Shown one piece after another: positions 16,665 through 59,742 of a stretch of 64,000 bases of DNA. Each line of letters starts with the position of its first letter. The first letter of the stretch is position 1. The notes beneath the pieces were generated by a model. That model was not told where the DNA came from. It was given only the letters and a program-made list of their open reading frames with translations, and did no database searches. The position numbers were made by a program, and so were the translations under genes. This DNA is from Candidatus Omnitrophota bacterium (lineage in GTDB: Bacteria; Omnitrophota; Gorgyraeia; B26-G9). Where the stretch lies: positions 37,478 to 101,477 of the forward strand of contig JAZDHZ010000034.1 in NCBI GenBank assembly GCA_043805415.1, written 5' to 3'.

Positions 16665-16726
16665 TTTTAATGCCTGGATATGTTGTATTTACAGTATTTT
16701 TATAAATAATAATCAGGGAATGAATT

Positions 16727-19882: not shown

Positions 19883-19902
19883 TCAGTAATTAGTAAAGTT
19901 TA

Positions 19903-21077: not shown

Positions 21078-22043
21078 TTATAATGTATTTAGCTTCAGGA
21101 GGTTTTCTTTGATTTCATTTTTAGGCGCTGGACAGACATTGTTTTTTGAGAGTATAGCCTGCCCTGATTCGCTGAACTCAAACTTTAGGAATTCTTTAAC
21201 CGCTGGAGTCAGATTGTCAGTAGTTATGTATTGAAACAATTTCCTTTTCAGAGGATAAATGCCTTTTTTGATTACTTCTTGATCAAATGGGTTAAGGGGC
21301 GTGAATCCTGTTTTGAACGCTAAATTAACGGCAGCGATTGAGGGATCTTTTGCATAGGCTAATCCGACAAATCCAATTGCCGATACATCACTTTTAAGCT
21401 TCTCTGTTTCGCTAGCGTCAGTTAGCTGCCGCATTGATTCGTCGTACGCGGCAATGTTCAGCTTTTGTTGAAAAAATAAGGCTTGCGCGGAAGTTAATTC
21501 TCTTCCCAAAAGAACAATCGGACAGTCATCTCCCCCAACTTGTTTCCAGTTTTTTATTTCACCGGTGTAGATTTGCCGTACCTGTTCCATGGTAAGGGTT
21601 TTTATTGGATTCGCTTCATTAACAACAACGCAAAGATTATCATGCGCCAGCACTAATTCAATATACCTGCGGTCGCTTTCCATCAGAGCCCGGATGTCTG
21701 AGGCCTGCATCTGGGAGGAAGCATTGGCAATCGTTATTGTACCTTGTTTTAACTGACTAATTGCCTCTTCTGTAGTGCCGCCCTTAACGTCAATCCGGGT
21801 GGAGGCATTGGCAATCGTTATCGTACCTTGGTTTAATTGACTGATTCCCACGTCCGTGGTACCGCCCTTAACATCAATTTTTATTTCAGGATGCGTGGCA
21901 AGATAATTAGCTGCTAAAATTTCAACAATCTTGACCATGGATTCTGATCCGGCGATTTTAATATCCTCTGCGCGGGTAGTTTCAATGTTTACGGCTAAAA
22001 ACAAGACAATTAGTAAAAAGTTCACGAAATAATTATTTTTCAT
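21078..22043 (-). CDS. periplasmic substrate-binding protein (PstS-like PBP fold) containing a 28-aa tandem duplication
   Basis: It has a signal peptide and PBP-like motifs. The start was moved to the ATG (rc 22041-22043) preceded by GGAGG. An internal 84-bp tandem repeat spans ~21721-21888. Confidence 0.45.
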   Translation of the reverse strand: MKNNYFVNFLLIVLFLAVNIETTRAEDIKIAGSESMVKIVEILAANYLATHPEIKIDVKGGTTDVGISQLNQGTITIANASTRIDVKGGTTEEAISQLKQGTITIANASSQMQASDIRALMESDRRYIELVLAHDNLCVVVNEANPIKTLTMEQVRQIYTGEIKNWKQVGGDDCPIVLLGRELTSAQALFFQQKLNIAAYDESMRQLTDASETEKLKSDVSAIGFVGLAYAKDPSIAAVNLAFKTGFTPLNPFDQEVIKKGIYPLKRKLFQYITTDNLTPAVKEFLKFEFSESGQAILSKNNVCPAPKNEIKENLLKLNTL

Positions 22044-22383
22044 CTCTAATTCCTCCGATATATTATTATTAGCACAAAAAAAAATAATTTCAAGCAATAA
22101 AAAAGTCTATTCAGCTATTTTTATTTTTGGAATATCTTCAATCCGGTAGAAAAATATATTAGCAAATTTTTCAAAAGTGTGGTATATTTAAATCAAGAGG
22201 ATAGACGAGCAGTAAAGTACGTTTAATGTTTGGATTTTGAATAAGTTCGGAAATTTAAGTGTAACAACCTCGTCTGTCCTCGTTTTTTTATGCCCAAATC
22301 ATATTAAGATTTTACGTATTGCGCCGTGAGTCGTGCGTATCGCGTAAAAGCCCCAATTTATCTATAGCTTTTGTTTCTATCCG

Positions 22384-32260: not shown

Positions 32261-32295
32261 AAAAGGCCGGGATTAATTATCCCGGCCTTTTTTGT
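32261..32295 (+). terminator. intrinsic terminator
   Basis: The hairpin GGCCGGGAT-taat-TATCCCGGCC is followed by T7. The GC-rich palindrome GGGCCACG-N6-CGTGGCCC follows at 32298-32319. Confidence 0.7.
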
Positions 32296-32380
32296 AGGGC
32301 CACGGCGTGACGTGGCCCTAATGGTGTCTTTGTGCCTTGTGTCTTGTGTCTTTAACTTAATCTGTGATATAATAAATCAA

Positions 32381-46044: not shown

Positions 46045-47232
46045 ATGGCGATTGAAATTATTGTACAAAAATGTGTTGGTTGTCGGTTGTGCGTAAAAGC
46101 ATGTCCTTTTGCCGCGATTGATATGGTTAATAATGTCGCGGAAATTAATGATAATTGTACTTTATGCGGTGCCTGCGTTGACAGCTGTAAGTTTGACGCG
46201 ATTTTACTGCGCAAAACCGAGGAAGTCTCAGTTTCTCTGGATGATTATCAGGATGTCTGGGTTTTTGCTGAGCAGAAAAAAGGCGTGATTCAGTCAGTTG
46301 TTTTTGAATTACTTGGCGAAGGCAAGAAACTCGCTCAGAAAAGAAATCAGAATTTAGCCGCGGTTTTAATCGGTCATAAATTAAAAGACGCTGCCAAGCA
46401 ATTAATTGAACGTGGAGCTGATAAGGTTTATGTAATTGACGCTCCTGAGCTTAAACATTATCAGGCAGATACTTATGCCAAAGTACTGACCAGTGTGATT
46501 GAACAGTATAAACCGGAGATTGTATTAACCGGCGCGACTTCCATTGGCCGGGCTTTGATTCCGCGCGTGGCTGTTGAACTTAAGACAGGGCTGACAGCGG
46601 ATTGTACTGCTTTGGATATTGATGAAGAAAAAGGCATGCTTTTGCAGACTCGTCCGGCATTTGGCGGAAATATCATGGCCACAATCATCTGCCCGTCACG
46701 CCGTCCGCAAATGGCAACTGTGCGCCATAAGGTTATGCAGGAAGCTGTGATTGATAAAACCAATAAAGGCGAGATTATTGAAATCAAGCCGAAAAAAGAG
46801 TTATTAACTTCCAGAACTAAATTAATTGATTTAATTGAAGACATGGAAGAAACAATGAATATCGCTGAAGCTGATATTATTGTTTCCGGCGGCAGAGGCA
46901 TGGGCAAGGCTGAGAACTTTAAAATATTAGAAGAGTTTGCCAAAGCAATCGGCGGAGCAGTCGGAGCATCGCGCGCCGCGGTTGACAGCGGATTTATTCC
47001 CTATTCCCATCAGGTCGGACAAACTGGCAAAACCGTTTGCCCGAAAATCTATTTTGCCTGCGGTATTTCCGGCCAGATCCAGCATCTAGTCGGCATGCAG
47101 TCATCAGACATCATCGTAGCGATCAACAAAGACCCTGATGCCCCGATATTCAAGCTGGCGACCTACGGCATCGTCGGAGACTTATTTGAAGTAATACCCA
47201 TGCTGACCAAAAAATTCGCGAAAAAGAAGTAA
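46045..47232 (+). CDS. etfA: electron transfer flavoprotein alpha subunit with N-terminal 2x[4Fe-4S] ferredoxin domain
   Basis: The N-terminus has CVGCRLCVKACP and CTLCGACVDSC. The EtfA FAD-binding C-terminus follows. Confidence 0.85.
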   Translation: MAIEIIVQKCVGCRLCVKACPFAAIDMVNNVAEINDNCTLCGACVDSCKFDAILLRKTEEVSVSLDDYQDVWVFAEQKKGVIQSVVFELLGEGKKLAQKRNQNLAAVLIGHKLKDAAKQLIERGADKVYVIDAPELKHYQADTYAKVLTSVIEQYKPEIVLTGATSIGRALIPRVAVELKTGLTADCTALDIDEEKGMLLQTRPAFGGNIMATIICPSRRPQMATVRHKVMQEAVIDKTNKGEIIEIKPKKELLTSRTKLIDLIEDMEETMNIAEADIIVSGGRGMGKAENFKILEEFAKAIGGAVGASRAAVDSGFIPYSHQVGQTGKTVCPKIYFACGISGQIQHLVGMQSSDIIVAINKDPDAPIFKLATYGIVGDLFEVIPMLTKKFAKKK

Positions 47233-47289
47233 GATCAACGGATTCAAACACAGAAAGACGTGTAAGATGAGCGTTAAGATCAATAGCCA

Positions 47290-47327
47290 AAAAGCAATTC
47301 CTTAAGAAAGGAATTGCTTTTTTTTGT
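47290..47327 (+). terminator. intrinsic terminator after etfA
   Basis: AAGCAATTCCTT-aagaa-AGGAATTGCTT is followed by T7. A second GC-rich palindrome GGCCAGGTC-GAG-ACCTGGCC lies at 47369-47389. Confidence 0.7.
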
Positions 47328-47439
47328 TCACCATGGATAAATAAATGAATATAAAACAAAATCCCGTAGGGCCAGGTCGAGACCTGGCCGAAACATAATC
47401 AAAAAATATGGCCGAAACAAATAAATTAGAAGAAGTAAA

Positions 47440-47450
47440 GGGGACGGTTC
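47440..47450 (+). repeat. GGGGACGGTTC(C/T)ATTT repeat family member
   Basis: Related copies occur at 48514, 49099 and 49897. The copies at 49099 and 49897 are each followed ~25 nt later by a GGGGTCAAGTCTCTA element. Confidence 0.7.
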
Positions 47451-47580
47451 TATTTAATTGAGAGAGTGGCGTTCCTCCGTCGTGCTTGTTCCTCGGTTTA
47501 TAAGGCGGGGCTATCCGTTTCTAAACCAAAGAAAATTAGATCACTTGGTTTTGAAGATGGATAACGTTGCGTGTTTACTC

Positions 47581-47625
47581 GTGAGCGGGGACGTTGTTTG
47601 ATAAATTGATTTATTTAAATAGTGA
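47581..47625 (+). repeat. 45-bp perfect direct repeat copy 1 (GTGAGCGGGGACGTTGTTTGATAAATTGATTTATTTAAATAGTGA)
   Basis: It is identical to 48463-48507. Similarity continues for a further ~40 nt (AAGGGGAYGGTT..TTTTTGG). Confidence 0.9.
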
Positions 47626-47742
47626 AAAAACTAAAAGGAATAAAGGGGATGGTTTTGTTTTTGGTAAACCATAAAATTTGCTTCCCGCATAAATCGGCGG
47701 GGCAAGCTGTTTGCCCTTCGACAAACTCAGGGTAAAAGCGCA

Positions 47743-47748
47743 AACGTT
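47743..47748 (+). promoter_or_regulatory. weaker AAACGTT upstream motif (GCGCAAACGTTATGTGAG) 22 nt before the RDD gene start
   Basis: It shares the CAAACGTTAT core with the motifs at 57828, 58159, 59755 and 60764. Confidence 0.35.
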
Positions 47749-47769
47749 ATGTGAGAAAAAATAATAAAT

Positions 47770-48483
47770 ATGAAAAAAGACTATAAAGAAAAAATATCGC
47801 AGTATACATTGGAAGAACTTATGGATGTTTCCATTCATATTGATAAGGAAAAGTTTCCTGATAGGTATGAAATGATTATTGCGGAGATTGAAGTTAGGAA
47901 GAATCAGCCAAAGGGTAGTTCAGAAGAACAAGATAAAAAACAAAGAATTTTTGCTGGATTCTGGATTAGATTTTGGGCATATGTTTTAGACATAATCCCG
48001 GTGCTATTATTATGGGTATTTTTATATAGGTTTTATTTTCAAGCAAAATCGGTTGTTACTCTATATTATGGAGTTTTTCCTCTGGGCTGGATTGCTTACA
48101 GAATTTATTTTCATGGTAGATGGGGGCAAACACTTGGAAAAATGGCAATGAAAATAAAAGTAGTTAATGTTGACTTTGGCAAAATTGATTATTATGCTGC
48201 TTTTAAAAGAGAAATTGTTAATATATTGATTGATTTAATCACAATAATTGTTGTAGTTGCAGCAATGAAATCTATTCCTTCAGTAAACTGGCTAGTTATG
48301 CCAGAAATAGAAAAGCAAAATGTAATTTTAAGGGCAAAAGATAAAATTAGTTTTATTGGATTGTTCTGGTTATATGCTGATATTATTTGTTTATTAATTA
48401 ATAAGCAAAAACGGTCGATACACGATTTTATTGGAAGCACAATAGTTGTAAGAGAAGAAGTAGTGAGCGGGGACGTTGTTTGA
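47770..48483 (+). CDS. RDD-family membrane protein
   Basis: It has the motifs WIRFWAYVLD, GQTLGKMAMKIKVV and RSIHDFIGSTIVV, with three to four TM helices. Confidence 0.6.
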   Translation: MKKDYKEKISQYTLEELMDVSIHIDKEKFPDRYEMIIAEIEVRKNQPKGSSEEQDKKQRIFAGFWIRFWAYVLDIIPVLLLWVFLYRFYFQAKSVVTLYYGVFPLGWIAYRIYFHGRWGQTLGKMAMKIKVVNVDFGKIDYYAAFKREIVNILIDLITIIVVVAAMKSIPSVNWLVMPEIEKQNVILRAKDKISFIGLFWLYADIICLLINKQKRSIHDFIGSTIVVREEVVSGDVV

Positions 48484-48507
48484 TAAATTGATTTATTTAA
48501 ATAGTGA
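48463..48507 (+). repeat. 45-bp perfect direct repeat copy 2, overlapping the last 7 codons of the RDD gene
   Basis: It is identical to 47581-47625. It encodes the ..VVSGDVV* tail of the RDD gene. Confidence 0.9.
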
Positions 48508-48580
48508 TTTTAAGGGGACGGTTATATTTTTTTGGAATAAATATATATATTTATTCATTCCAAACAAGAAGGAGAGCAAA

Positions 48581-49027
48581 ATGAAGAAGGTGATAGGTTT
48601 TATGGTCACAGTATTAGTGTTGGCAACGGGCATCGCATATGCTGCCATAGAAGAATATTATGAAGAAAAACCTTTAAAGATTCAGAAAGCTGACCCTTTT
48701 GATAATGACAAACAAATAAAAATTCGAGTGGGCGAAAAGATCATATTCAAAATCAAGATATATCAGGATGAATTCTTTGGCCAGACTACTATTAGTGCAA
48801 ATGCTAATATTGACAATACAACCAAACAGAAAGTCAAAGCCATCTATTCAATCTCGTTTCATGATAAGGATGGCAAGCTTGTCGCATGTCACCAGGGATC
48901 ATGGGACCTCGATGAAAATGATGATGTAAATTACGGAAGTGGCATTATCTACACAGATACCGCTTCGATTGCATCAGTTACAAATTACAAATTAAAAACA
49001 CAGGTGATTGAATCTAAAAAGGAATGA
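48581..49027 (+). CDS. small secreted protein of unknown function
   Basis: It has an AAGGAG RBS and a signal peptide (MKKVIGFMVTVLVLATGIAYA). The tracked ORF is longer, but the upstream part covers repeat DNA. Confidence 0.35.
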   Translation: MKKVIGFMVTVLVLATGIAYAAIEEYYEEKPLKIQKADPFDNDKQIKIRVGEKIIFKIKIYQDEFFGQTTISANANIDNTTKQKVKAIYSISFHDKDGKLVACHQGSWDLDENDDVNYGSGIIYTDTASIASVTNYKLKTQVIESKKE

Positions 49028-49098
49028 CCAAAAAAAGTGTAAATGGAGTCAGGTCTTGAATCTAGATAATGGACGAAAAAAGCAAAAAAAGGGGAAAA

Positions 49099-49151
49099 GG
49101 GGACGGTTCCATTTTCGGAGGAAAAACAGAGGGTCAAGTCTCTACTTGACT
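49099..49151 (+). repeat. composite repeat: GGGGACGGTTCCATTTTCGG followed by the palindrome GGTCAAG-tctcta-CTTGAC
   Basis: It is nearly identical in layout to 49897-49950. Confidence 0.7.
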
Positions 49152-49230
49152 ACAAGTAAAATTTATTGAGAAAGAGTGGAAGGCTAGGGGACGTAGTGAG
49201 CTAACCCGGGATTGACGGACACCAAGAAAA

Positions 49231-49268
49231 GGGGTCAAGTCTGTAATCTTGATATTTTTATAAACGTT
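49231..49268 (+). repeat. GGGGTCAAGTCTGTAATCTTGATATTTTTATAAACGTTTGACAC element
   Basis: It belongs to the GGGGTCAAGTCT family. It contains an AAACGTT core 43 nt upstream of the ATG at 49311. Confidence 0.7.
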
Positions 49269-49298
49269 TGACACTAATTTTTGTTTTAGCTTAAAGGT

Positions 49299-49829
49299 TT
49301 GATAGATAAAATGAGAGAAATTTATTACGCGATCTATAAAAATGCTGATTATAAAACAATGGTTATGGTAAGCTTAGCCGAAGCAATCATCTCCAAAAGA
49401 GGCAGATTTAATAAAGATAAATTTATTTTAAGTGATGAAATAGGTTTAAATCGGTTTGAGAAACAAATTTTAAGTAAAATATGTTTAAATAACTTTTGTT
49501 ATTTTCATATTTCAGATTACACTAAATGGATTGATTATTTGATTCAAGAATGTATAAAAAATAAATATTTTAAGAAGCTGCTTGTCTTGGGGCCAAAGCC
49601 AACAAAATATTTTAAGACAGAATTAAAAAAAAATTTAAAAAATTTCAATGAGGATATTATTGCCTATATTGACTCAAGGGAAATTAATTTGTTAATGAAG
49701 ATTAATAAGTCTATTTCCCAAATTAAATTGCCTGAATTTAGACAATTAATCAAAAAAAAAGATATTATGGCTGAAATGATGGCTGAAGTTATGGATAAGG
49801 GGTATTGGCTCGAGGCAGATAAGTTGTAG
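49299..49829 (+). CDS. hypothetical protein (cytoplasmic, Lys-rich)
   Basis: This is an ORF only. The alternative ATG start is at 49311. No recognisable domain was found. Confidence 0.3.
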   Translation: MIDKMREIYYAIYKNADYKTMVMVSLAEAIISKRGRFNKDKFILSDEIGLNRFEKQILSKICLNNFCYFHISDYTKWIDYLIQECIKNKYFKKLLVLGPKPTKYFKTELKKNLKNFNEDIIAYIDSREINLLMKINKSISQIKLPEFRQLIKKKDIMAEMMAEVMDKGYWLEADKL

Positions 49830-49896
49830 CAATAAAAGAAGATATTGAGGGGCGTAGTTTAAAGATTTAAAGTTATAGAAACAATGAAGGAAAAAA

Positions 49897-49965
49897 GGGA
49901 CGGTTCCATTTTCGGTGAAAGATAAGGGGTCAAGTCTCTAATCCTGACATTTTTAACGCTTAATG
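49897..49965 (+). repeat. composite repeat: GGGACGGTTCCATTTTCGG + GGGGTCAAGTCTCTAATCCTGAC + AACGCTTAATGC
   Basis: See 49099. It lies 35-100 nt upstream of the ORF at 50000. Confidence 0.7.
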
Positions 49966-49999
49966 CTAATTTCGTAATTTAAAATTTAAAGGATGAGAA

Positions 50000-51202
50000 A
50001 TGAGAAGAGTATTGCTTGTAATTTTATTAATTGGTGTTTTTTGTCCGTTTTCTTTAGCTCAGGAGCAAAATTCTGATTTCGATTTTAAGATTTTCTTAAC
50101 TCAACAGAGTGAAGAAATGGATTGGTGGAATGGGGTTCCTTCTCAATTTGGTCCGCATATTTCTGAAGTCAGTAGTGTTTCTAAAAAAGAAATTTTTAAA
50201 ATAATACCTATTTTCCGTAATTACGGTCTTGAGGATGGGGAAAAAGCAAACATTATATATAATGTTTCTATTTTAAAGCCAGATAATAGTATTTATGCAG
50301 AGATAAATGATCTTGAGGGGTGGAAGGGTAAAGTTAATGGGCCGTATTTGTTACCAGCGAAAAATAGATTAGTGGTTTGTTTTGAGCCTGAGGACACATT
50401 CGGTGAATATGCTATAAGAATAGAATCTTTTGATAAAATTAAAGATCAGAAAGTAGCTCATGAAGACAAAATTAATCTAGAAGAGTTTAAATTGCCTGAT
50501 TTAAAAGATGATGTAGATCTGTTTTTTACGTACAACTATAATCCTGACCCTGAAAAAGCCATGGCTTATTTTTTGAATTCTGCATACCCGTTTATAAATG
50601 AAAAAGGGCAAGTTGTATGGTCTGGGATATGGTTTTTTAAATGTGTTTTTGATGAAAATGATTTTCTAATTCCCCAAATCGTAAAATTTTTTAAAGATGA
50701 AGCTACTAAAAAGCAGAAAGAGAATATAATTTTACTATTCTATTTTTTAGGAAAAACGAAAGAGCTTGATTTAAAAGGGGATTTAGTAAAATATAGTGAA
50801 GGGTTTAAAAAAATAAAGGCTCCAAATCCTTACGATAAAATAGATAATCCTAGTCAGCTGGATATGCTATGGGGAGAGTTTTTTGCTACTGGTAGATTAA
50901 AACCAGTAAGGCAGATTATATCTTCATTCCAGCTTAGTGAATTCATGGGGACATTGGAAAAAATTAAGAAAAAAGAACTAGATGTTAATGAAAAATCTGT
51001 GTACCGCGAAGCAATGCTTGAAGCTACTTTCAGTTCTGCCCTTTGGTCTTTAGAAAGTAATTGCAATCAATCGAGCTTACTATATCAATATTGCGTTGGA
51101 CTTATTGAGTCTGATGAATTAAATGATAATGAAAAAGGCTATTTAGGAGCTATTTTAAACAGTGTATATGAGAAGAAGAAAAAAGAAGACAGAAAAGAAT
51201 AA
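50000..51202 (+). CDS. secreted hypothetical protein (400 aa)
   Basis: It has a signal peptide (MRRVLLVILLIGVFCPFSLAQE). No recognisable domain was found. Confidence 0.35.
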   Translation: MRRVLLVILLIGVFCPFSLAQEQNSDFDFKIFLTQQSEEMDWWNGVPSQFGPHISEVSSVSKKEIFKIIPIFRNYGLEDGEKANIIYNVSILKPDNSIYAEINDLEGWKGKVNGPYLLPAKNRLVVCFEPEDTFGEYAIRIESFDKIKDQKVAHEDKINLEEFKLPDLKDDVDLFFTYNYNPDPEKAMAYFLNSAYPFINEKGQVVWSGIWFFKCVFDENDFLIPQIVKFFKDEATKKQKENIILLFYFLGKTKELDLKGDLVKYSEGFKKIKAPNPYDKIDNPSQLDMLWGEFFATGRLKPVRQIISSFQLSEFMGTLEKIKKKELDVNEKSVYREAMLEATFSSALWSLESNCNQSSLLYQYCVGLIESDELNDNEKGYLGAILNSVYEKKKKEDRKE

Positions 51203-51220
51203 TAGGGTCAAATAAGAAAA

Positions 51221-51265
51221 GGGATCAAGTCTGTAATCTAGATATTTCCCTAAACGTTCAACGTT
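51221..51265 (+). repeat. GGGATCAAGTCTGTAATCTAGATATTTCCCTAAACGTTCAACGTT element
   Basis: It belongs to the GGGGTCAAGTCT family and has a doubled AACGTT core. It lies 27-40 nt upstream of the ATG at 51292. Confidence 0.7.
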
Positions 51266-51291
51266 AATTTTTACTCAAGTTTAAATGTTAT

Positions 51292-51885
51292 ATGCAAAAA
51301 ATAATAAAAATTACTTTTTTTGTCATTTTTTTTCAAAATGTCCTATGCAATCAGATATTTTGTTCTGAGAAATCACCTGAGCCGTTTGGGGTGGATGACA
51401 TTACACTTGCGGTCACAAATGGGCAGCCGTATATTTATCAGGCTGAAATTTCTGCTGAAAAAAAACTGCATAAATACCTTTGGCTAAGATGTGGGTTAGC
51501 AGGCATATTTGATTCCAATAAACCTGATCTGTTTGGAGGTATTACGCTGGGAGTCAGATTACATGGAAAGGCTTTTTTTGCTCCTTTTGTAGGAATCGGA
51601 AGTTTTTTGGGTGAATCTGCTCATTATAAAGATGCCGATCATGACGGAATTAACAATGACGGCGATGCCTGGACGGATGAACCGGGTGAGAAAAAAAGAG
51701 TTAATAACTTTATTTCTGCAATTTATCCTGAGATTGGTATGCAGATTAATATAGCCAAAGAAAAGAGTATTTCCGCTTTTGGAAGATATTATGTTTCAAC
51801 TGAGGGAAGAGATGATGATTCCTGGATGTGGGGATTTAGTTTTTCGGTTAAATTTGGGGCAGGCCTAAAAAATGAAAAAGATTGA
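51292..51885 (+). CDS. secreted protein with thrombospondin-type-3-like Asp-rich Ca-binding motif (DADHDGINNDGDAWTDE); possible small OM beta-barrel
   Basis: It has a signal peptide, a C-terminal aromatic residue (..FSVKF) and a DxDxDG motif. Confidence 0.3.
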   Translation: MQKIIKITFFVIFFQNVLCNQIFCSEKSPEPFGVDDITLAVTNGQPYIYQAEISAEKKLHKYLWLRCGLAGIFDSNKPDLFGGITLGVRLHGKAFFAPFVGIGSFLGESAHYKDADHDGINNDGDAWTDEPGEKKRVNNFISAIYPEIGMQINIAKEKSISAFGRYYVSTEGRDDDSWMWGFSFSVKFGAGLKNEKD

Positions 51886-52071
51886 CGAATTAAAAAAACT
51901 AGAGTCTTCAGAGGAGATTTTCCTAAGCGCTTAACGCTATCCGCTAAACACTGATTTTGCGGTTTTTTTTGGTAAATCATAAAATTTAGTGAAATAGGGG
52001 GCGTTGATTCAAACATATATAAAAGAAAATTATAGAGAAATAATAGTGTCAGATATTGAAAAAGGAGACAA

Positions 52072-52581
52072 GTGATGAATGAAAATCATCAAACAAATAA
52101 TAAAGGAATGTCTGATCTGGAGATAAAATCCCTTATCGTTAAACGCAATAATGATGCGCAGGAAATCGTTCGATCCCTAAATTCTCAGAGCATTATTAAT
52201 CATTTAATGAGTTCTGATCTAGCAACAAGTATGAGTATGAGTATATGGCTTGGACTGCATGATAATTTTAACTGTGCCCGAGGTCTTTTAGTTCATGTTC
52301 GATCAAAAGAATCCGAGCTAGTTTCTGATGCATATAAATCTTCGGGGGAAATTGTTGGACGATTCCGTTGTAATAACTGTGGTTTTGAGACTGGACTCGG
52401 AGTAAAATACTTTCAACAAAGGATAACCAAAGGAGAGCTTAGCTCTCCGATTAAACCTGAAGATCTTTTTCTTGGTGCAGCAGCTAGAAAATTATCGCAG
52501 CAAGTAATTGATCTACGTAGAGCACAAATTGAATCTCTTCGTTTAAAAGGATCGGACAAGGATGTTTTTCCCTCTCTCTAG
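52072..52581 (+). CDS. hypothetical protein
   Basis: This is an ORF with a GGAGA RBS. It contains an RCNNCG motif. No recognisable domain was found. Confidence 0.3.
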   Translation: MMNENHQTNNKGMSDLEIKSLIVKRNNDAQEIVRSLNSQSIINHLMSSDLATSMSMSIWLGLHDNFNCARGLLVHVRSKESELVSDAYKSSGEIVGRFRCNNCGFETGLGVKYFQQRITKGELSSPIKPEDLFLGAAARKLSQQVIDLRRAQIESLRLKGSDKDVFPSL

Positions 52582-52708
52582 GGAAAGGGGTCAAGTCTGT
52601 AATCTCAACATTTCTCTAATAGAAAGCAACGGTTAAAGGGGTTAAAAAGTGCCCGAATTATTGAGCTAGTACAACATCGCATAAAATTACAGTGGAATAG
52701 AACTAGAG
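52582..52708 (+). repeat. 127-bp perfect direct repeat, copy 1 (begins GGAAAGGGGTCAAGTCTGTAATCTCAAC)
   Basis: It is 100% identical to 57625-57751. A further shared TGAAAACTG follows a 10-bp indel. It starts right at the stop codon of the preceding ORF. Confidence 0.9.
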
Positions 52709-52724
52709 TGAAAACTGCGTAAGC

Positions 52725-52740
52725 GGGGTCAAACCTTGAC
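52725..52740 (+). repeat. GGGGTCAAACCTTGAC palindromic element
   Basis: It is a GTCAA-acc-TTGAC palindrome of the same family. Confidence 0.6.
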
Positions 52741-52783
52741 TTTGGACAAAATGTGAAATATCAGGCGTGATAATAACTTCTAA

Positions 52784-53026
52784 AGTGGAGGTCTGACCCT
52801 GAGATTTTATGGGGAGATACCGGCGACAACTAAAGAGTCGGACGCTATGAGTAAAGCGCTGAAAAATAATAACTTTAAATTTGTCGGATCAACAATTTGT
52901 TACGCGTTTATGCAGGCAGTAGGGATGGTCAATGACCATTTAACTACATGTTATAGATATAATAGAGTACCTAAGGCAAAAAAACAGCGGTTAACGGATA
53001 GGGATAGGAGAAAAATAGTTGGATGA
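52784..53026 (+). pseudogene. tag: 3' remnant (~80 codons) of DNA-3-methyladenine glycosylase I gene
   Basis: The in-frame translation ..ESDAMSKALKNNNFKFVGSTICYAFMQAVGMVNDHLTTCY.. matches the Tag C-terminus (SDALSKALKKRGFKFVGTTICYSFMQACGLVNDH). There is no N-terminal two-thirds. Its stop overlaps the treZ start. Confidence 0.7.
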
Positions 53027-54849
53027 ACAAAAAAATAGGCGCTAACTATACAAATAATAATATCTGCGAATTCTCTGTATGGGCTCCTTTAAAAGAGGAT
53101 ATCTCGCTTCATATCCTTTCTGATAAGCAAAGGATTATTCCGATGCAGAAAGACGCGGACGGATATTTTAGCGTTACTGTTGATGAAGTTGTCCCGGGTA
53201 CAAAATATCTTTTTCACCTTGAAGCTAATAGCGAGTATCCGGATCCCGCGTCATTCTATCAACCGGACGATGTAATGGGCCCTTCTTGTGTTGTTGACCA
53301 TTCGGCCTTTGTCTGGGATGATAAAAATTGGCAGGGATGCTTGGCCGCGGAAATGATTATTTATGAGCTGCATGCCGGGACATTTACGCCAGAAGGAACA
53401 TTTGATGGGATCATTACAAAGCTTTCGCATTTGCAGGATTTGGGGGTTAATACAATCGAAATCATGCCGGTGGCTCAATTTCCCGGAACAAGAAACTGGG
53501 GATATGATGGGGTTTATCCTTTCGCCGTACAAAATTCATACGGCGGCCCAGCCGGGTTAAAAAGGCTGGTTAACGAATGCCACAAACGAAAAATAAGCGT
53601 TATTCTTGACGTTGTTTATAATCATTTTGGCCCGGAAGGGAATTTCTTGCGTCAATATATGCCGTGTTTTACGGATAAATATAAAACAGCGTGGGGCGAG
53701 GCAATCAATTTTGATGATGCCTACAGTTATGGAGTTAGAGATTACTTTATTCAGAATGCTTTGTATTGGTTGGAACACTTCCACATGGACGCTTTAAGAC
53801 TGGACGCGGTTCATGGTATTTTTGATATGAGCGCGAAACATATTCTTAAAGAATTATCGGAAAAAGTGACGGAATTTTCACGATTAAAGCAAAGAAAATA
53901 TTACCTAATTGCTGAGAGTGATTTAAATGACAGACGCGTCATAGATCCTGACTCCAAAGGCGGCTATGGGCTGGACGCGCAGTGGAACGATGATTTTCAT
54001 CATTGCCTGCATACGCTTTTGACAAAAGAAAATCAGGGATATTACGAAGATTTCGGACAGGTTGAACAAATGGCTAAAGCGCTAAAACAAGGATTTGTTT
54101 ATTCGTGGGATTATTCGAAATTCCGGAAAAGATATCACGGAAGCGCATCAACAGATATTTCTGCCGGCCAGTTTGTTGTTTTTTCTCAAAACCACGATCA
54201 AATCGGCAACCGCGTGAAAGGTGAACGGCTTTCCGCGCTGGTTTCTTTTGAGGCTTTGAAAGTTGCCGCCGGGACTGTCCTTCTGTCCGCGAATATTCCT
54301 TTATTATTTATGGGAGAAGAATACGGCGAGAACGCGCCGTTTCTCTATTTCATGAGTTTTCATGATAAGCAGTTGATTGAGGCGATTCGCGCCGGGAGAA
54401 AAAAAGAGTTTGCTTCATTTAATTGGCAGGGCGAACCGGATGATCCGTACGCTGAAGAAACATTTTTAAAATCAAAATTAAAATGGGATATAATTAAGAA
54501 TGAGAAACAGCGTGTTCTGTTGGAATTTTATAAGAAATTGATTCAGATAAGAAAATCGGCCGGGAGCTTGTTTGCGAAAGCTATTCTTGAGGTCAATGCC
54601 GATGAAGAAACTAAAGTAATTTCTATAACGCGTTTACAAAAACAAGCAGGGCTTCATCTCGCGATAAATTTTCACAATAAAAATGCCGCGTATACGTCTC
54701 TAAAGCTTGAGGGACAGTGGAAAAGATTGCTTGTCTCATCGGATATTAAGTGGTTAGGGCCAGGGACAAATGTTCCGGAAAAGGCCGTCAATAACGGAGA
54801 ATTTATTTTGGAACCTTTTAGTTTAATAGTATTTGAGAAAAAACAGTGA
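53023..54849 (+). CDS. treZ: malto-oligosyltrehalose trehalohydrolase (GH13)
   Basis: It has an N-terminal CBM48-like region (FSVWAP). Catalytic regions include DVVYNHFGPEG, GFRLDAVH-like DALRLDAVHG, EEYGENAPF and QNHDQIGNR. Confidence 0.9.
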   Translation: MNKKIGANYTNNNICEFSVWAPLKEDISLHILSDKQRIIPMQKDADGYFSVTVDEVVPGTKYLFHLEANSEYPDPASFYQPDDVMGPSCVVDHSAFVWDDKNWQGCLAAEMIIYELHAGTFTPEGTFDGIITKLSHLQDLGVNTIEIMPVAQFPGTRNWGYDGVYPFAVQNSYGGPAGLKRLVNECHKRKISVILDVVYNHFGPEGNFLRQYMPCFTDKYKTAWGEAINFDDAYSYGVRDYFIQNALYWLEHFHMDALRLDAVHGIFDMSAKHILKELSEKVTEFSRLKQRKYYLIAESDLNDRRVIDPDSKGGYGLDAQWNDDFHHCLHTLLTKENQGYYEDFGQVEQMAKALKQGFVYSWDYSKFRKRYHGSASTDISAGQFVVFSQNHDQIGNRVKGERLSALVSFEALKVAAGTVLLSANIPLLFMGEEYGENAPFLYFMSFHDKQLIEAIRAGRKKEFASFNWQGEPDDPYAEETFLKSKLKWDIIKNEKQRVLLEFYKKLIQIRKSAGSLFAKAILEVNADEETKVISITRLQKQAGLHLAINFHNKNAAYTSLKLEGQWKRLLVSSDIKWLGPGTNVPEKAVNNGEFILEPFSLIVFEKKQ

Positions 54850-57617
54850 AAGTACCTATTAGCACATATCGAATTCAATTTCACGCCGGCTTTACGTTTG
54901 AATCGGCTGCCGGCATATCGCGGTATTTGAAGGATCTGGGGGTATCGCATATTTACGCGTCGCCGATTCTTCAAGCCAAGAAGGGGAGCATGCACGGTTA
55001 TGATGTTGTTGATCCCCTTCAGATCAACCCGGAATTGGGCGGAGAAGAAAAATTTAACCGGCTTATTGAGCAGGTTAGGGCTCTGAATATGGGGTGGCTT
55101 CAGGATATTGTGCCTAATCACATGGCGTTTGACAGTGAAAACAAGATGTTGATGGATGTTTTTGAGAAAGGTGAGGCGTCCCAATTTTTTGATTATTTTG
55201 ACATTAACTGGAATCATCCTTACTTAAACTTAAAAGGAAAGGCATTGACGCCTTTTTTGGGAGATTTCTACGGCAATTGTCTTAAAAAAGGTGAAATAGT
55301 TGTCGGGATAGATGAGAATGGATTTTTTATTAAGTACTATGAATTGAAATTACCGGTACTGTTATCCTCCTACGCCGGAATTCTCAGAGGATGTCTTGAT
55401 TTATTAGAACACGCGGATAATCACACGACAGACGAGGCGGATCAATTCAATCACGCGATTGGGATTTTTAAGGCTTTAAACCAGCGTGACAATCAGGCGG
55501 TGACTGTTGCCAAAGCCGGCCTTTGGCGCGTGTTTACGAAAGATAAAAGAGTTGAAAAAACTATCGCCAGTTTCCTAGAGAAAATGAATAATGGAAAAAC
55601 GGATTCATTAGACCTGCTTCACAATCTAATCTCTGATCAACTCTTTCGTCTTTCTTTCTGGAAAGTAGGTAATGATGAGTTAAATTACAGGAGGTTCTTC
55701 ACGGTCAATTCCTTGATATGTTTAAGAGTGGAAGAATTCAGCGTCTTTGATTTTCTTCATAAGCGGATATCGGAGCTTGTTAATAATGGGCAAATAGACG
55801 GTATCAGGCTGGATCATATTGACGGTTTAGATTCTCCGCTTATTTATATGCGGCGGTTGAGGGAAAAAACAGGAGACCGGTATATTGTTGTGGAAAAGAT
55901 TCTTTGTAAAGATGAGCACCTGCCCGAGAATTGGCCGGTACAAGGAACGACGGGGTATGATTTCCTGAACTATGTTAATGGGGTTTTTGTTGACGCCGCG
56001 TCTGAACGCGCGATGGAAAGAATCTATATATCGTTTAGTGGTATGCGTTTTCGGTTTGAGTCGCTTGTCGTTGAAAAAAAACGGTTATTTATGGGAAAGC
56101 ATATGGCCGGCGATATCGATAATCTCGCCCATTTATTGAAAAATATTTTGAGTGGGAACATATATGGTTCTGATTTTACAATGTATGGGTTGCGCCGGGC
56201 TTTGGTCGAAATTATGGCGCATTTTCCGGTGTACCGAACTTATGCTTCGGAACTTGGGATAAGCGAGTCAGATATGTTTTATATTAAGCAGGCGCTGGAT
56301 AGAGCCCGGAGGACAGGGCAAGACCTTTTATATGAATTAGACGCGATTGAAAAAATCCTTTCTTTGGATTCCGCGCTTAATATAAACGACGCGGAAAAGG
56401 AAAAATACCGTCATTTTACGAAAAGATTTCAGCAGTTTACCGGCGCTCTGATGGCCAAAGGCTCAGAAGACACCGCGGATTATATTTTTAACCGTTTCAT
56501 ATCGCTGAATGAAGTAGGCGGGTTTCCGGAAAAGTTTGGCCTGGCATTAGGAGATTTTCACGAATTTAATGTTAAACGACTGAAAGACTGGCCGTATTCA
56601 ATGAGCGCGACGGCAACACATGATACCAAACGGGGAGAAGATGTCAGGGCGCGGATTAATGTGCTTTCTGAAATGCCGGAAGAATGGAAAAATATCGCAA
56701 AATTATCACATAAGCAAAATAAGAAGCACAAATCGAAAATCGGTCATGAGCTCGCGCCCGGCAAAAATGATGAATATCTTATTTATCAGACGTTCATTGG
56801 CGCTTTTCCATTTAAACCAGAGGAAGCAGAAAATTTTAAGGAAAGGATGAAGCAATATATCGTTAAAGCTGTTCGTGAAGCGAAGCTTCATACGGCATGG
56901 CTGAAACCAGACACACAATATGAGGAGGCCTGCGTCAAGTTCATTGATAGAATTTTAGATTCTTCAAGTGAAAATCAATTCCTGAATAATTTTATTCCTT
57001 TTCAAAGAAAAGTAGCATATTTTGGGATGTTTAATTCTTTGTCCCAGACACTTCTTAAATTAACAGCACCGGGTATACCCGATATCTATCAAGGCAATGA
57101 ATTGTGGGATTTTAATTTGGTTGATCCTGATAACAGAAGGCCGGTTGATTTTGAGAAACGTAAGCAATTTCTTAATGAGATACAAGGTAAAGAGAACGAT
57201 TTATCACCTCTGATCAAGGAATTGCTTGCCCACAAAGAAGACGGAAGAATAAAGATGTTCACGCTCTACCGTCTTTTGAAGGCAAGAAATGAATTTAGCG
57301 AATTATTTCAGAACGGCGAATATATCCCTCTTGAGGTCAAGGGGGCATTACAAAACCACATTATTGCTTTTGCCCGCAGAAAGGACAATAGCTGTTGTGT
57401 TGTCATCGCTCCGCGATTTTTATCAAAGGTTGTTAAAGAGAATGAGTTGCCTTTGGGAGAAACGGTCTGGCAGGATACAGCGATCATTTTACCCGAAGGA
57501 TTTCCGTCAGAATGGAGAGATATCCTAACCGGGGAAAGCCAGCGAGCGGAAGGGATTATCTTTATAGGAAAGGTTTTAAAGATTCTTCCGGTCAGTTTAT
57601 TGTCTTTGCATGAATAA
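54846..57617 (+). CDS. treY: malto-oligosyltrehalose synthase (GH13)
   Basis: It has the N-terminus ISTYRIQFHAGFTF..LGVSHIYASPILQA..GSMHGYDV and DGIRLDHIDGL. Length is 923 aa. Confidence 0.9.
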   Translation: MKVPISTYRIQFHAGFTFESAAGISRYLKDLGVSHIYASPILQAKKGSMHGYDVVDPLQINPELGGEEKFNRLIEQVRALNMGWLQDIVPNHMAFDSENKMLMDVFEKGEASQFFDYFDINWNHPYLNLKGKALTPFLGDFYGNCLKKGEIVVGIDENGFFIKYYELKLPVLLSSYAGILRGCLDLLEHADNHTTDEADQFNHAIGIFKALNQRDNQAVTVAKAGLWRVFTKDKRVEKTIASFLEKMNNGKTDSLDLLHNLISDQLFRLSFWKVGNDELNYRRFFTVNSLICLRVEEFSVFDFLHKRISELVNNGQIDGIRLDHIDGLDSPLIYMRRLREKTGDRYIVVEKILCKDEHLPENWPVQGTTGYDFLNYVNGVFVDAASERAMERIYISFSGMRFRFESLVVEKKRLFMGKHMAGDIDNLAHLLKNILSGNIYGSDFTMYGLRRALVEIMAHFPVYRTYASELGISESDMFYIKQALDRARRTGQDLLYELDAIEKILSLDSALNINDAEKEKYRHFTKRFQQFTGALMAKGSEDTADYIFNRFISLNEVGGFPEKFGLALGDFHEFNVKRLKDWPYSMSATATHDTKRGEDVRARINVLSEMPEEWKNIAKLSHKQNKKHKSKIGHELAPGKNDEYLIYQTFIGAFPFKPEEAENFKERMKQYIVKAVREAKLHTAWLKPDTQYEEACVKFIDRILDSSSENQFLNNFIPFQRKVAYFGMFNSLSQTLLKLTAPGIPDIYQGNELWDFNLVDPDNRRPVDFEKRKQFLNEIQGKENDLSPLIKELLAHKEDGRIKMFTLYRLLKARNEFSELFQNGEYIPLEVKGALQNHIIAFARRKDNSCCVVIAPRFLSKVVKENELPLGETVWQDTAIILPEGFPSEWRDILTGESQRAEGIIFIGKVLKILPVSLLSLHE

Positions 57618-57624
57618 GTTTGCA

Positions 57625-57751
57625 GGAAAGGGGTCAAGTCTGTAATCTCAACATTTCTCTAATAGAAAGCAACGGTTAAAGGGGTTAAAAAGTGCCCGAA
57701 TTATTGAGCTAGTACAACATCGCATAAAATTACAGTGGAATAGAACTAGAG
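57625..57751 (+). repeat. 127-bp perfect direct repeat, copy 2
   Basis: It is identical to 52582-52708. It starts 8 nt after the treY stop. Confidence 0.9.
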
Positions 57752-57827
57752 GGTCAGGCATTGAAAACTGAAGACTAAAAACAATTGGAAATGCAGGCAA
57801 TCAAATAACGCTGTGCGTTTCTTCTGC

Positions 57828-57844
57828 CTGAGCTCAAACGTTAT
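57828..57844 (+). promoter_or_regulatory. conserved upstream motif CTGAGCTCAAACGTTAT (TGAGCTCA + AACGTT palindromes)
   Basis: It lies 19 nt upstream of the ATG at 57863, followed by an AGGAGG RBS. The same motif occurs at 58159, 59755, 60764 and, degenerate, 63257. Confidence 0.6.
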
Positions 57845-57862
57845 AACTAAGGAGGGAATATC

Positions 57863-58105
57863 ATGGCTTGTCCGATAGAAGGTAGCTGTACATTTCATAA
57901 TAATCAAATACATATGTTGGAAGAACGGAAAAAAATAATACAAGTAAGGTTTTGTCTTAGTAGTTATTCGCAATGTGCTCGTTATAAAGTATATGCATAT
58001 TTTAAATCTACACATCAGGTTCCTCCAGGTTTATACCCAAATAATTTTGAGCAAGCTAATGAACTGATCCAAAACGATAGGCGGAAACATGGCGGCGGGC
58101 ATTAA
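57863..58105 (+). CDS. small Cys-containing protein (80 aa; CPIEGSC..C..C)
   Basis: This is an ORF with a strong RBS and the conserved upstream motif. No recognisable family was found. Confidence 0.35.
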   Translation: MACPIEGSCTFHNNQIHMLEERKKIIQVRFCLSSYSQCARYKVYAYFKSTHQVPPGLYPNNFEQANELIQNDRRKHGGGH

Positions 58106-58158
58106 TTGTACTAAAACTATGTGGGAAATAAAGGGAGACAATACTTAATTACTCTGTT

Positions 58159-58174
58159 TGAGCTCAAACGTTAT
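58159..58174 (+). promoter_or_regulatory. conserved upstream motif TGAGCTCAAACGTTAT
   Basis: It lies 39 nt upstream of the ATG at 58213, followed by an AAGGAG RBS. Confidence 0.6.
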
Positions 58175-58212
58175 ATAAATTTTTCGCTAGTTAAAATAAT
58201 TTAAGGAGACAA

Positions 58213-59742
58213 ATGTTCCATATTAGGCTTATTGATCGATTCTTTGTTTTATTGATTAAGATTATTGATAAAGCGCAGGATAAGATTATCAAGAATTATG
58301 CTGTGTTTACTTTGATTGTGAGTAGGGCTCCGCAAACGGTCGGAGCGGAAGCTTGCTGGTATAGAGCAATCAAAGAATTTATGATTGCTTATAAAGATGT
58401 TCCGGCTTATAGAGAGTTTCTGAAGAAGAGTGGCTGGAAATGCGAATCCAGGGATGCTAAACGTATTTTTGAATCATTGCCTTTAATGGATAAAGCTAAT
58501 TATATTCTTCCTTATAGTACAGAGGATAGATGTCTTAACGGTAAGTTCTTTGACAAAGGGGTTGTTATTGATGAGTCTTCAGGATCAACAGGTATTCCTT
58601 ATAACTGGGTAAGAAGCCAGGAAGAAAGGGAAATTGTTAAACAGCTGATTGGGGTGTATCTGCGATACTGTTATGGTAATCAGAATTTTATTATTCTGAA
58701 TACATTCAGTATGGGAGCCTGGGCAACTGGGTTTAATATGGCTTTAGCAGCACAGTCATTGGGTGTGGTTAAGTCTACTGGTCCGGATGTGGATAAAATA
58801 TTAAGAACGCTTGAATTTTTTAGCGGTAAATATCCGTATATTCTTAATGGATATCCGCCATTTTTAAAATATCTGTTTGATGAAGGAGATAAGCGGGGAT
58901 TTAAGTGGAAAGATTATAATATCCATGTGCTTGTCGGCGGAGAAGGCATGTCCGAAGGATTAAGGGATTATCTGCTTAGGTACGCGAAGACGGTTTATTC
59001 CGGTTATGGGGCTTCTGATTTAGAGATTGGCATCGCAGGTGAGAATCCTTTGACTGTTATGATCAGGAAGTTATGCCTTAAAGATCCTGAGTTAAAAAAC
59101 ACGCTTTTTGGCGAAGATCACCGCATGCCCATGCTTTTTCAGTATAATCCTTTGGATCATTTTATTGAAATAATCCAAAAAGAAATAGTTGTGACCATAA
59201 GTAAGCCTTGGACGCTTTCTCCCAGGATAAGATATAATATCAAGGATGAAGGGGGCATGATTACTTTTGATCAGATGAAAGAAAAGCTGAAAGCGCATAA
59301 TGTTGATTTATTGGAATTGGAACTGGAATGTAAATATCCGCGTTGGTATGTACCGTTTTTATTCATATACGGCAGAAAAGACAGTACTGTATCAGTTATG
59401 GGAGCAAATATATACCCTGAGGATGTGGAAAGTGTAATATATTCAGATTTGATGCTGGCACAGAATATTAATTCATTTTCAATATCACTGGAAGAGGATA
59501 CTCAAGGCAATCCGCATCCTTGTTTTGAATTTGAATTACTGGATATAGAGCAAAAATCCCGGGTTGAAAAGAAATTAAGTGAATTAATGTCATCCGGTCT
59601 GGCTAAATTAAGTCTGGATTATAAGAAGGCTTTGGAAGAGTATCCGCAGGCACTTGAGCCGATTATCAGGATTTTTGAGTTAAATCAAGGGCCGTTTAAG
59701 GAAAATCAAAGGCGGATCAAAAGACGCTATGTTAAGAGCTAG
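58213..59742 (+). CDS. adenylate-forming enzyme of the PaaK/CapK/F390-synthetase-like (phenylacetate-CoA ligase) family
   Basis: It has the A1 motif ESSGSTGIPY (compare SSGTTGKP). The C-terminal ~509 aa match this family, with an N-terminal extension. Confidence 0.5.
   Translation: MFHIRLIDRFFVLLIKIIDKAQDKIIKNYAVFTLIVSRAPQTVGAEACWYRAIKEFMIAYKDVPAYREFLKKSGWKCESRDAKRIFESLPLMDKANYILPYSTEDRCLNGKFFDKGVVIDESSGSTGIPYNWVRSQEEREIVKQLIGVYLRYCYGNQNFIILNTFSMGAWATGFNMALAAQSLGVVKSTGPDVDKILRTLEFFSGKYPYILNGYPPFLKYLFDEGDKRGFKWKDYNIHVLVGGEGMSEGLRDYLLRYAKTVYSGYGASDLEIGIAGENPLTVMIRKLCLKDPELKNTLFGEDHRMPMLFQYNPLDHFIEIIQKEIVVTISKPWTLSPRIRYNIKDEGGMITFDQMKEKLKAHNVDLLELELECKYPRWYVPFLFIYGRKDSTVSVMGANIYPEDVESVIYSDLMLAQNINSFSISLEEDTQGNPHPCFEFELLDIEQKSRVEKKLSELMSSGLAKLSLDYKKALEEYPQALEPIIRIFELNQGPFKENQRRIKRRYVKS

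Follow-up and report, generated by a model that had tools for sequence, protein, structure and literature searches.

Identical 127-bp direct repeats around a tag remnant and treZ-treY in an Omnitrophota genome: members of a mosaic junction-module family, possibly copied recently

Why does a stretch of non-coding DNA stand twice, letter for letter, on either side of a pair of trehalose biosynthesis genes? This question is raised by contig JAZDHZ010000034.1 of the metagenome-assembled genome (MAG) GCA_043805415.1 from a Candidatus Omnitrophota bacterium, of which we analysed 64,000 nucleotides (positions 37,478 to 101,477 of the forward strand), here called the window. Two identical 127-bp direct repeats, R1 and R2 (jointly R), bracket a 3' remnant of tag, which encodes DNA-3-methyladenine glycosylase I, as well as intact treZ and treY. 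We give a probability of about one half to the reading that R1 and R2 are recently copied members of a family of mosaic junction modules, similar to repetitive extragenic palindromic (REP) sequences and bacterial interspersed mosaic elements (BIMEs), in a zone of genome plasticity. All feature coordinates are collected in Table 1.

R1 and R2 agree at 127 of 127 positions (E = 5e-62 in a self-BLAST of the window), with a start-to-start spacing of 5043 bp. Directly 3' of R2 lies a 10-bp insert (GGTCAGGCAT, 57752-57761), after which the 9-mer TGAAAACTG is again common to both sides (52709-52717 and 57762-57770). The perfect identity as well as the indel followed by nine shared bases are thus as stated in the original prediction, and its proposal of a recent duplication or recombination is supported by the 127 identical positions, compared to 80-86% identity among the other members of the family described below. 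Its further statement that each copy directly follows a stop codon is approximately right: R1 abuts the TAG of the open reading frame (ORF) at 52072-52581, and R2 starts 7 nt past the TAA of treY. As read from the sequence, the + strand of R contains no ATG in its 127 nt. The left edge of R1 is sharp, as is typical of the family, while the right edge is ragged, with an indel after which homology is lost; neither terminal inverted repeats nor a target-site duplication can be defined for R, of which the left end alone is sharply conserved. Two conventional candidates were rejected. A composite transposon or a unit bounded by insertion sequences (IS) does not fit, as the 127 nt of R encode no transposase, and for a tRNA-linked att site or integrative element the repeats are present but an integrase is not, nor is there a tRNA or tmRNA in the window.

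Against any biological origin of the pair stands the fact that the source is a MAG and that the repeat length equals a common assembler k-mer, 127 being the largest k used by SPAdes and by one MEGAHIT preset. According to this explanation, be it a plain assembly error or a mixture of strains, a loop was threaded through a 127-mer node; the real sequences would be the left flank (A) joined through R to the right flank (D), together with a molecule reading treY-R-Z (Z being the DNA that follows R1), which would exist separately, as a tandem array or in another strain. An unrelated Omnitrophota MAG does contain a contig named k127_, and the contigs of relatives often break inside the island in which the repeats reside. 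Building such a path, however, needs all four junctions in the reads, and the sole alternative resolution is a 5-kb circle or tandem array without replication or recombination genes, while by our own reasoning graph logic gives no preference for repeats of exactly k. Moreover, the left edge of R is the natural edge of its sequence family, and homology on the right resumes past the 10-bp indel. Because of these two properties the repeat boundaries look biological, and we consider a pure artefact very unlikely.

R belongs to a family of junction elements. Its first ~38 nt constitute the box GGGGTCAAGTCTGTAATC, and the 19-nt core of this box, GGGGTCAAGTCTGTAATCT, is found five times in the window at up to 3 mismatches (at 49231, 49926, 51221, 52587 and 57630), whereas 100 shuffled sequences contained 0 copies, which excludes a chance origin. 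All five strong copies are intergenic and on the + strand. A hidden Markov model (HMM) built from them adds weaker copies at 49131 and 49043. The weak copies number about three in all and are likewise intergenic and on the + strand, and no copy in the window lies outside 47.3-57.8 kb. The name-giving sequence of the box is GGGGTCAAG, and boxes begin with (A)AAGGGG. The short motif GGGG[AT]C occurs 14 times on the + strand of the window and 0 times on the - strand; the intergenic DNA of the island, 1.87 kb in total, accounts for 10 of these 14 occurrences, corresponding to an 83-fold enrichment. The + strand also carries almost all genes of the window and shows a positive GC skew, in the same direction as the bias of this motif.

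In boxes 1-3 the conservation extends over ~76 nt up to the next start codon, despite the unrelated ORFs downstream. A palindrome, GTCAAG-N8-CTTGAC, is perfect in the box loci L013 and L019 and pairs at 5-6 of 6 positions in boxes 1-3, with one compensatory change from G-C to A-T. When a genome collection was scanned, the box was recovered from three other Omnitrophota MAGs, each time a few bases past a stop codon; eight further matches in the same scan came from unrelated taxa, which is about the number estimated for chance. Among viral contigs there were two matches, both inside coding sequence and chance-like in appearance, and none for the second box. The L013 box is followed by a 13-codon remnant, MSRPLRIEYEDAF, that we take to resemble the N-termini of REP-associated tyrosine transposases (RAYTs). 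Exactly at the 5' edge of boxes we also observed short tandem duplications (CAGGAATAAGGGGTCAA, GAAATAGAGGGTC and GAAAAGGGG, each present twice), which may be the footprint of a copying mechanism. A role of the boxes as sigma-70 promoters or terminators was discarded: no promoter was called, and only two boxes showed hairpins resembling terminators, which were weak and on the minus strand. Likewise discarded was a structured RNA or riboswitch, there being no Rfam match at the gathering score in the window, nor at E <= 1 in the region 47000-58500.

Small same-strand ORFs without database matches, separated by conserved ~76-nt repeats in an array that is hypervariable among relatives, recall an integron-like array that has clustered attC sites but no integrase; the boxes would then represent attC-type sites. 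Yet a regular-expression scan of both strands returned no RYYYAAC...GTTRRRY pair in any island intergenic region, and single-strand folding is not significant on either strand. Neither the window nor the relatives' loci contain a tyrosine recombinase, and tblastn with IntI1 and XerD gave no match at E < 1 in either; what relatives encode at this locus is a Y1 transposase. Without attC motif pair, fold or IntI, an integron or an integrase-free attC cluster is largely refuted, and we regard it as exceedingly improbable.

The surroundings of R were compared with the orthologous loci of five close relatives (designated L025/26, L027/28, L029/30, L035 and L036/37; EtfA identity 87-93%). The upstream gene order pta-ackA-yceD-rpmF-plsX-fabD-fabG-acpP-fabF-acd-etfB-etfA is kept in L025-L030 and L035-L037, and the flank of the intrinsic terminator behind etfA is 74-90% identical in all relatives. 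Past this terminator the homology is gone, and the genes that follow etfA differ in each of the five. The repeats therefore sit in a hypervariable island. In L025/26 (GCA_018817165.1; JGI 3300014656) the island comprises hypothetical genes, an IS3 orfA and, at 15242-20243, genes of an AbiJ-like protein, an OLD-TOPRIM/AAA ATPase and a UvrD helicase, the latter two being Gabija-like, and thus forms a defence island in that genome. It contains genes of a TPR protein and an aldehyde dehydrogenase in L027/28, a DUF2971 gene and a Y1-transposase pseudogene in L029/30, a truncated RAYT-like gene, a SWIB gene and small ORFs in L035, and a Y1-transposase gene in L036/37. In the window itself, the four AT-rich ORFs to the left of R1 are without a counterpart in Pfam, NCBIfam, PADLOC or PHROGs. 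The island ORFs were consequently not taken for phage or defence genes, PADLOC and PHROGs having returned nothing. Of the six ORFs located from 47.7 to 52.6 kb, five have a GC content at third codon positions (GC3) of 0.24-0.29 and one has 0.36, compared to at least 0.32 in core genes. The Jensen-Shannon divergence (JSD) of their codon usage amounts to 0.06-0.085, values that are somewhat inflated by the short length of the ORFs.

A BLASTN comparison of the island intergenic DNA with the islands of the relatives revealed many common modules of 27-100 nt and 75-100% identity, which stand in different order in different islands and are sometimes inverted. Three of them, X, Y and Z, relate directly to R. 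An alignment (A3) of R with the X-type modules at 49122-49173 of the window and at 4886-4950 and 6541-6612 of L030 resolves R into the head and the tail of such a module with ~68 nt extra inside; the X module of the window also matches L030 6545-6594. X, Z and Y adjoin one another in L029/L030, where they stand directly behind the etfA terminator. The same Z-Y comes after R1 in the window, while R2 carries only the first 9 nt of Z, past the 10-bp insert; in L028 Y is inverted (4265-4299). The Z-Y homology stops at ~52810, where the homology to Tag starts; the breakpoint in tag coincides with the end of the R1-Z-Y mosaic. The earlier idea that the repeats mark the insertion which destroyed tag thus has to be modified: the breakpoint is located 102 nt to the right of R1 and not at R1 itself, but it coincides with the end of the Z-Y segment contiguous with R1.

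Between the two repeats we find 102 nt of non-coding DNA, the tag remnant and the intact treZ and treY. The original prediction had described 75 bp of spacer and an ~80-codon fragment of tag in front of the two trehalose genes. Intact treZ and treY and an 80-codon open frame (52784-53026) are indeed present, but only 52811-53026 of this frame derive from tag, and the non-coding part is correspondingly 102 nt long. The Tag-derived part covers positions 128-176 of the 177 positions of Pfam Adenine_glyco (PF03352; E = 1.4e-21) and is 67% identical to residues 134-179 of E. coli Tag in tblastn; the same query detected no 5' part of tag anywhere in the window. The tag sequence is hence a pseudogene remnant. 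It has no internal stop codon over its 72 Tag codons, nor has the 80-codon frame, and its stop codon overlaps the treZ start (ATGA). The retention of an open frame ending in ATGA suggests that translational coupling to treZ is still used. Likewise, treZ and treY overlap by 4 nt, as they do in relatives, and their products (608 and 923 amino acids, compared to 609 and ~925 in relatives) contain GH13 domains. In all relatives compared treY adjoins treZ, and the window thus holds the TreY-TreZ pathway pair as adjacent intact genes. Their codon usage (JSD 0.032 and GC3 0.40 for treZ; JSD 0.030 and GC3 0.42 for treY) falls within the JSD range of 27 core genes (0.037 +/- 0.008), i.e. the composition of treZ-treY is native-like. 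Since the codon usage of tag'-treZ-treY looks native, whereas it is the AT-rich genes on the left that look foreign, the trehalose genes are not well explained as newly arrived cargo. Taken with the ATGA overlap, these codon data speak for a native tag-treZ-treY operon which the mosaic cut short.

The abrupt junction between Y and tag' looks like a duplication joint, and the stump, free of internal stops over 72 codons, is consistent with a recent event. Both observations would fit a tandem duplication, in which a segment from mid-tag through treZ-treY-R-Z-Y was doubled, most of the first copy was subsequently replaced by AT-rich cassettes and the second Z-Y was deleted. Such a history would call for two or more additional events of precise deletion or replacement, and neither a first treZ-treY copy nor the 5' half of tag has left any trace; it also explains neither the box family nor the 45-bp repeat pair described next. 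We therefore regard it as highly improbable.

Near the left border of the island, a second perfect pair of the same box superfamily, 45 bp in length, brackets a gene of the RDD family. By eye its layout is like that of R (GGGGAC-N17-ATTTATTTAAATAG compared to GGGGTC-N17-ATTTCTCTAATAG), and the right flank of its first copy runs into backbone sequence common to L025 11359-11399. The existence of two independent perfect pairs of one superfamily around gene units raises the possibility of a cassette-type or Campbell-type integration: a circle carrying Z-Y-tag'-treZ-treY and one R would have recombined with the chromosomal arrangement A-R-D to give R-cargo-R, either by homologous recombination or through a box-specific recombinase acting in trans, with the 45-bp pair as the product of a second such event. 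A crossover within R predicts the observed asymmetry of the flanks exactly, R1 running into Z-Y and R2 into the 10-bp insert and 9 nt of Z. Repeat-bracketed genes are also found in relatives, e.g. between the 79-nt direct repeats of L025 (12336-12414 and 15051-15129, 92% identity), which enclose two genes of that island. The 79-nt module itself recurs at 47514-47556 of the window and at L035 4035-4074, downstream of the RAYT remnant. On the other side, integration presupposes two R copies that were already identical, and so leaves their identity unexplained, and closure of the circle would have had to take place at an arbitrary site within tag. Furthermore, neither the window nor the loci of the relatives yielded a recombinase, and treZ-treY look compositionally native and not imported. 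Integration of this kind thus appears possible but unlikely.

Traces of transposition are also found at this locus. Y1-type transposase genes or pseudogenes occur at the etfA hot spot of three relatives: in L036/37, where the gene at the orthologous position of L036 matches PF01797 with 27 bits (cutoff 23), in L035, where the truncated gene at the orthologous position matches the NCBIfam model of REP-associated tyrosine transposases (NF047646) with E = 7e-5, below the cutoff, and in L029/L030, where a GGGGATCAAG box lies ~30 nt downstream of the pseudogene. The genes of L030, L035 and L036 are interrupted by REP-like units consisting of CTGTAG and a GC-rich hairpin. The window contains two canonical REP-like units, each just downstream of an intrinsic terminator. 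An IS3-family left end is represented in the window by a short remnant; the corresponding sequence is located directly before an HTH_Tnp_1 orfA in L025 (20286-20354) and occurs also in L028 (6825-6893) and L035 (~6170-6230). In each genome the remnant directly follows a different box of the GGGG(A/T)C type, which suggests that the IS3 element targets the boxes.

A bolder proposal starts from these transposases. Here, the GGGG(T/A)C modules would be the recombination or initiation sites of an undescribed, integrase-free cassette system driven by a HUH (Y1/RAYT-like) transposase. Units of box and gene would be moved or copied as single strands from a precise left end, leaving perfect direct repeats such as the 45-bp and 127-bp pairs, and such copying would build up the hypervariable cassette array downstream of etfA. 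We consider the existence of a system of this type quite unlikely.

The best reading of the evidence is that the island behaves like a mosaic-repeat zone of the REP/BIME type, in which modules with GGGG(T/A)C boxes separate the genes. We propose the following course of events. A native, translationally coupled tag-treZ-treY operon would have been situated at the edge of the hot spot; a mosaic ending in Y would then have been joined to the middle of tag, with loss of its 5' part, and AT-rich cassettes would have accumulated on the left. Finally, R would have been copied recently, either in the manner of an HUH transposase, starting at its precise left end, or through recombination or gene conversion among members of the family. 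Two routes fit because the left edge of R is sharp and its right edge ragged: HUH-type copying from a defined left end on the one hand, gene conversion or a single crossover on the other. As a result of this recent copying, one R would now stand on each side of tag'-treZ-treY, and the R1-Z-Y mosaic would supply or pass on transcription for the stump, treZ and treY.

Several observations weigh against this assignment to a REP/BIME-like family and keep our confidence at about one half. We infer the copying mechanism from the edges of R, only two copies of which were found within the 64-kb window, and the GGGGTC box is without the classical 5' GTAG of REP sequences. R folds no better than shuffled sequence on either strand (z-scores +0.8 to +1.2), and the 6-bp hairpin of the box is degenerate in R, with 4 of 6 pairs. 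The exact 19-mer core had zero matches in the JGI metagenome collection. Neither Y1 nor any other transposase or recombinase gene is present in the 64-kb window, where RAYTs were searched for with a RAYT query and with the relatives' own proteins. At 74% identity, the homologues of the ORF at 58213-59742 have none of the neighbours that it has in the window and thus set no right border of the island. The relatives, finally, offer no ancestral arrangement: the nearest TreZ homologues (at most 73% identity) are preceded by glgX, as in the best match, or by unrelated genes, in no case by tag, and they carry no box; among the relatives searched via TreZ none is close enough and shows an intact tag-treZ-treY; and a search with the Tag stump yielded only fragmentary, distant Tag proteins without synteny information. 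The nearest TreZ homologues, with such genes in front of them, therefore do not indicate in which direction the event went.

Table 1. Features of the repeat-flanked locus and of the surrounding island. Coordinates are window positions unless a relative's locus is named.
Feature	Position	Strand	Remarks
Intrinsic terminator of the etf operon, left border of the island	47289-47322	+	15-bp stem, then T run
etfA (ferredoxin-fused electron-transfer flavoprotein alpha), last conserved gene before the island	46045-47232	+	homologues 87-93% identity
Canonical REP-like unit	47363-47395	+	GTAG, then GGCCAGGTC/GACCTGGCC hairpin; counterpart in L028 4197-4245
Second canonical REP-like unit	32294-32320		GTAG, then GGCC...GGCC hairpin
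45-bp perfect direct repeat, copy 1	47581-47625	+	with GGGGAC box; 100% identical to 48463-48507
RDD-family membrane protein gene between the 45-bp repeats	47770-48483	+	Pfam RDD E = 2e-22; GC3 0.24
45-bp perfect direct repeat, copy 2	48463-48507	+	encodes the last 7 codons of the RDD gene
X-type module (AGGGTCAAGTCTCTACTTGAC...ATTGAGAAA)	49122-49173	+	83% identical to L030 4877-4939; weak match to the box HMM
IS3-family left-end remnant	49197-49235	+	39 nt; only IS trace in the window
Box 1 unit (GGGGTCAAGTCTGTAATCT core and conserved stretch to the next start codon)	49224-49299	+	exact core match; 80% identical over 76 nt to 51214-51289
Box 2 unit	49919-49972	+	preceded by a GGGACGGTTCCATTTTCGG box at 49897
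Box 3 unit	51214-51289	+	occupies the whole gap between ORFs 50000-51202 and 51292-51885
Four AT-rich ORFs (49299-49829, 50000-51202, 51292-51885, 52072-52581)	49299-52581	+	GC3 0.24-0.29
R1, left 127-bp copy	52582-52708	+	enlarged X-type module; box core 52587-52605
Modules Z-Y, contiguous with R1	52709-52810	+	homologous to L030 4940-5045; tag breakpoint at the right end
tag (DNA-3-methyladenine glycosylase I), 3' remnant	52811-53026	+	Pfam, tblastn, translation
treZ (malto-oligosyltrehalose trehalohydrolase), intact	53023-54849	+	608 aa
treY (malto-oligosyltrehalose synthase), intact	54846-57617	+	923 aa
R2, right 127-bp copy	57625-57751	+	box core 57630-57648
10-bp insert GGTCAGGCAT, then 9-mer TGAAAACTG	57752-57770	+	homology with R1-Z ends here
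ORFs after TCTG(CC/TT)TGAGCTCAAACGTTATA	57863-58105; 58213-59742		80-aa Cys-rich protein; PaaK-like adenylate-forming enzyme
Box-edge tandem duplications	L013 ~330-375; L030 4877-4903; L019 1576-1598; window 51203-51228	- (L013)	

Two further repeats of the window deserve mention. The sequence TCTG(CC/TT)TGAGCTCAAACGTTATA is found at 57823-57845 and at 58153-58175, in both cases ~20 nt 5' of the ribosome-binding site of an ORF, and may be a shared operator or promoter. An 86-nt tandem repeat (21709-21794 and 21793-21878, 84% identity) is located inside the minus-strand gene of a PBP-like solute-binding protein (21078-22097).

Homology considerably shorter than these perfect 127 bp suffices for RecA-dependent recombination. 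With two such direct repeats, the 5,043-bp unit that contains the trehalose genes could be deleted by this pathway, leaving the left flank A, one R and the right flank D; the original prediction of a possible deletion or excision is thus a sound one in view of RecA biology. If this pop-out occurs, trehalose synthesis would be an easily lost gene set. Compatible-solute synthesis would here reside on a 5-kb segment primed for loss, which fits the patchy distribution of trehalose synthesis across Omnitrophota MAGs (PMC8542988). The locus adds a previously undescribed junction-repeat family and a conserved plasticity hot spot after etfA to the picture of this phylum. In this genome the hot spot holds cassettes without a family match, in one relative defence genes of the Gabija-like kind, and in others genes of Y1 transposases. 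As a marker locus it could be of use for following variation at the strain level. To our knowledge, Omnitrophota has no cultured model. Sequence family and locus are new, while the phenomenon as such, mosaic intergenic repeats that create recombination-prone direct repeats around accessory genes, is already known. Repeat-mediated turnover of islands is well documented, and nothing about it is mechanistically surprising here.

Among known systems, the locus can be compared with the REP/BIME elements and their associated RAYT genes, known in Proteobacteria such as E. coli and Pseudomonas. As in those, short intergenic units lie just past stop codons or terminators, mosaics of short motifs are shuffled between strains, and the locus is associated, in relatives, with an IS200-like Y1/HUH transposase gene. 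In addition, the IS3-family element next to the units recalls IS1397, an IS3-family element that inserts into REP units. Unlike REP sequences, the GGGGTC box is not preceded by a 5' GT(A/G)G; the two separate REP-like units of the window do carry GTAG. Moreover, the window copies all have one orientation without inverted pairs, they are clustered in a single 10-kb island and not dispersed over the window, no RAYT gene is present in the window, and R, at 127-146 nt, is largely unstructured.

With integron arrays and integrase-free attC clusters the island shares small cassettes in the same orientation between related repeats, hypervariability at a fixed chromosomal position and single-gene units flanked by perfect repeats; it differs from them in the lack of an attC motif or fold and of IntI, and in repeats that are conserved right up to the next start codon. 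The perfect direct repeat on each side of a 4.9-kb gene block resembles the products of Campbell-type integration and excision and the translocatable units of IS26-type arrays, and the asymmetric left and right flanks resemble single-crossover products, although the repeat here is a 127-nt non-coding module, neither IS nor gene, and is known at this locus from one assembled arrangement. Miniature inverted-repeat transposable elements, including those derived from IS200/IS605, differ from R in that no terminal inverted repeats or target-site duplication can be defined for it and the left end alone is sharp; what R has in common with them is that its repeats are small and non-autonomous, with a strict strand bias and with identical copies that imply recent movement.

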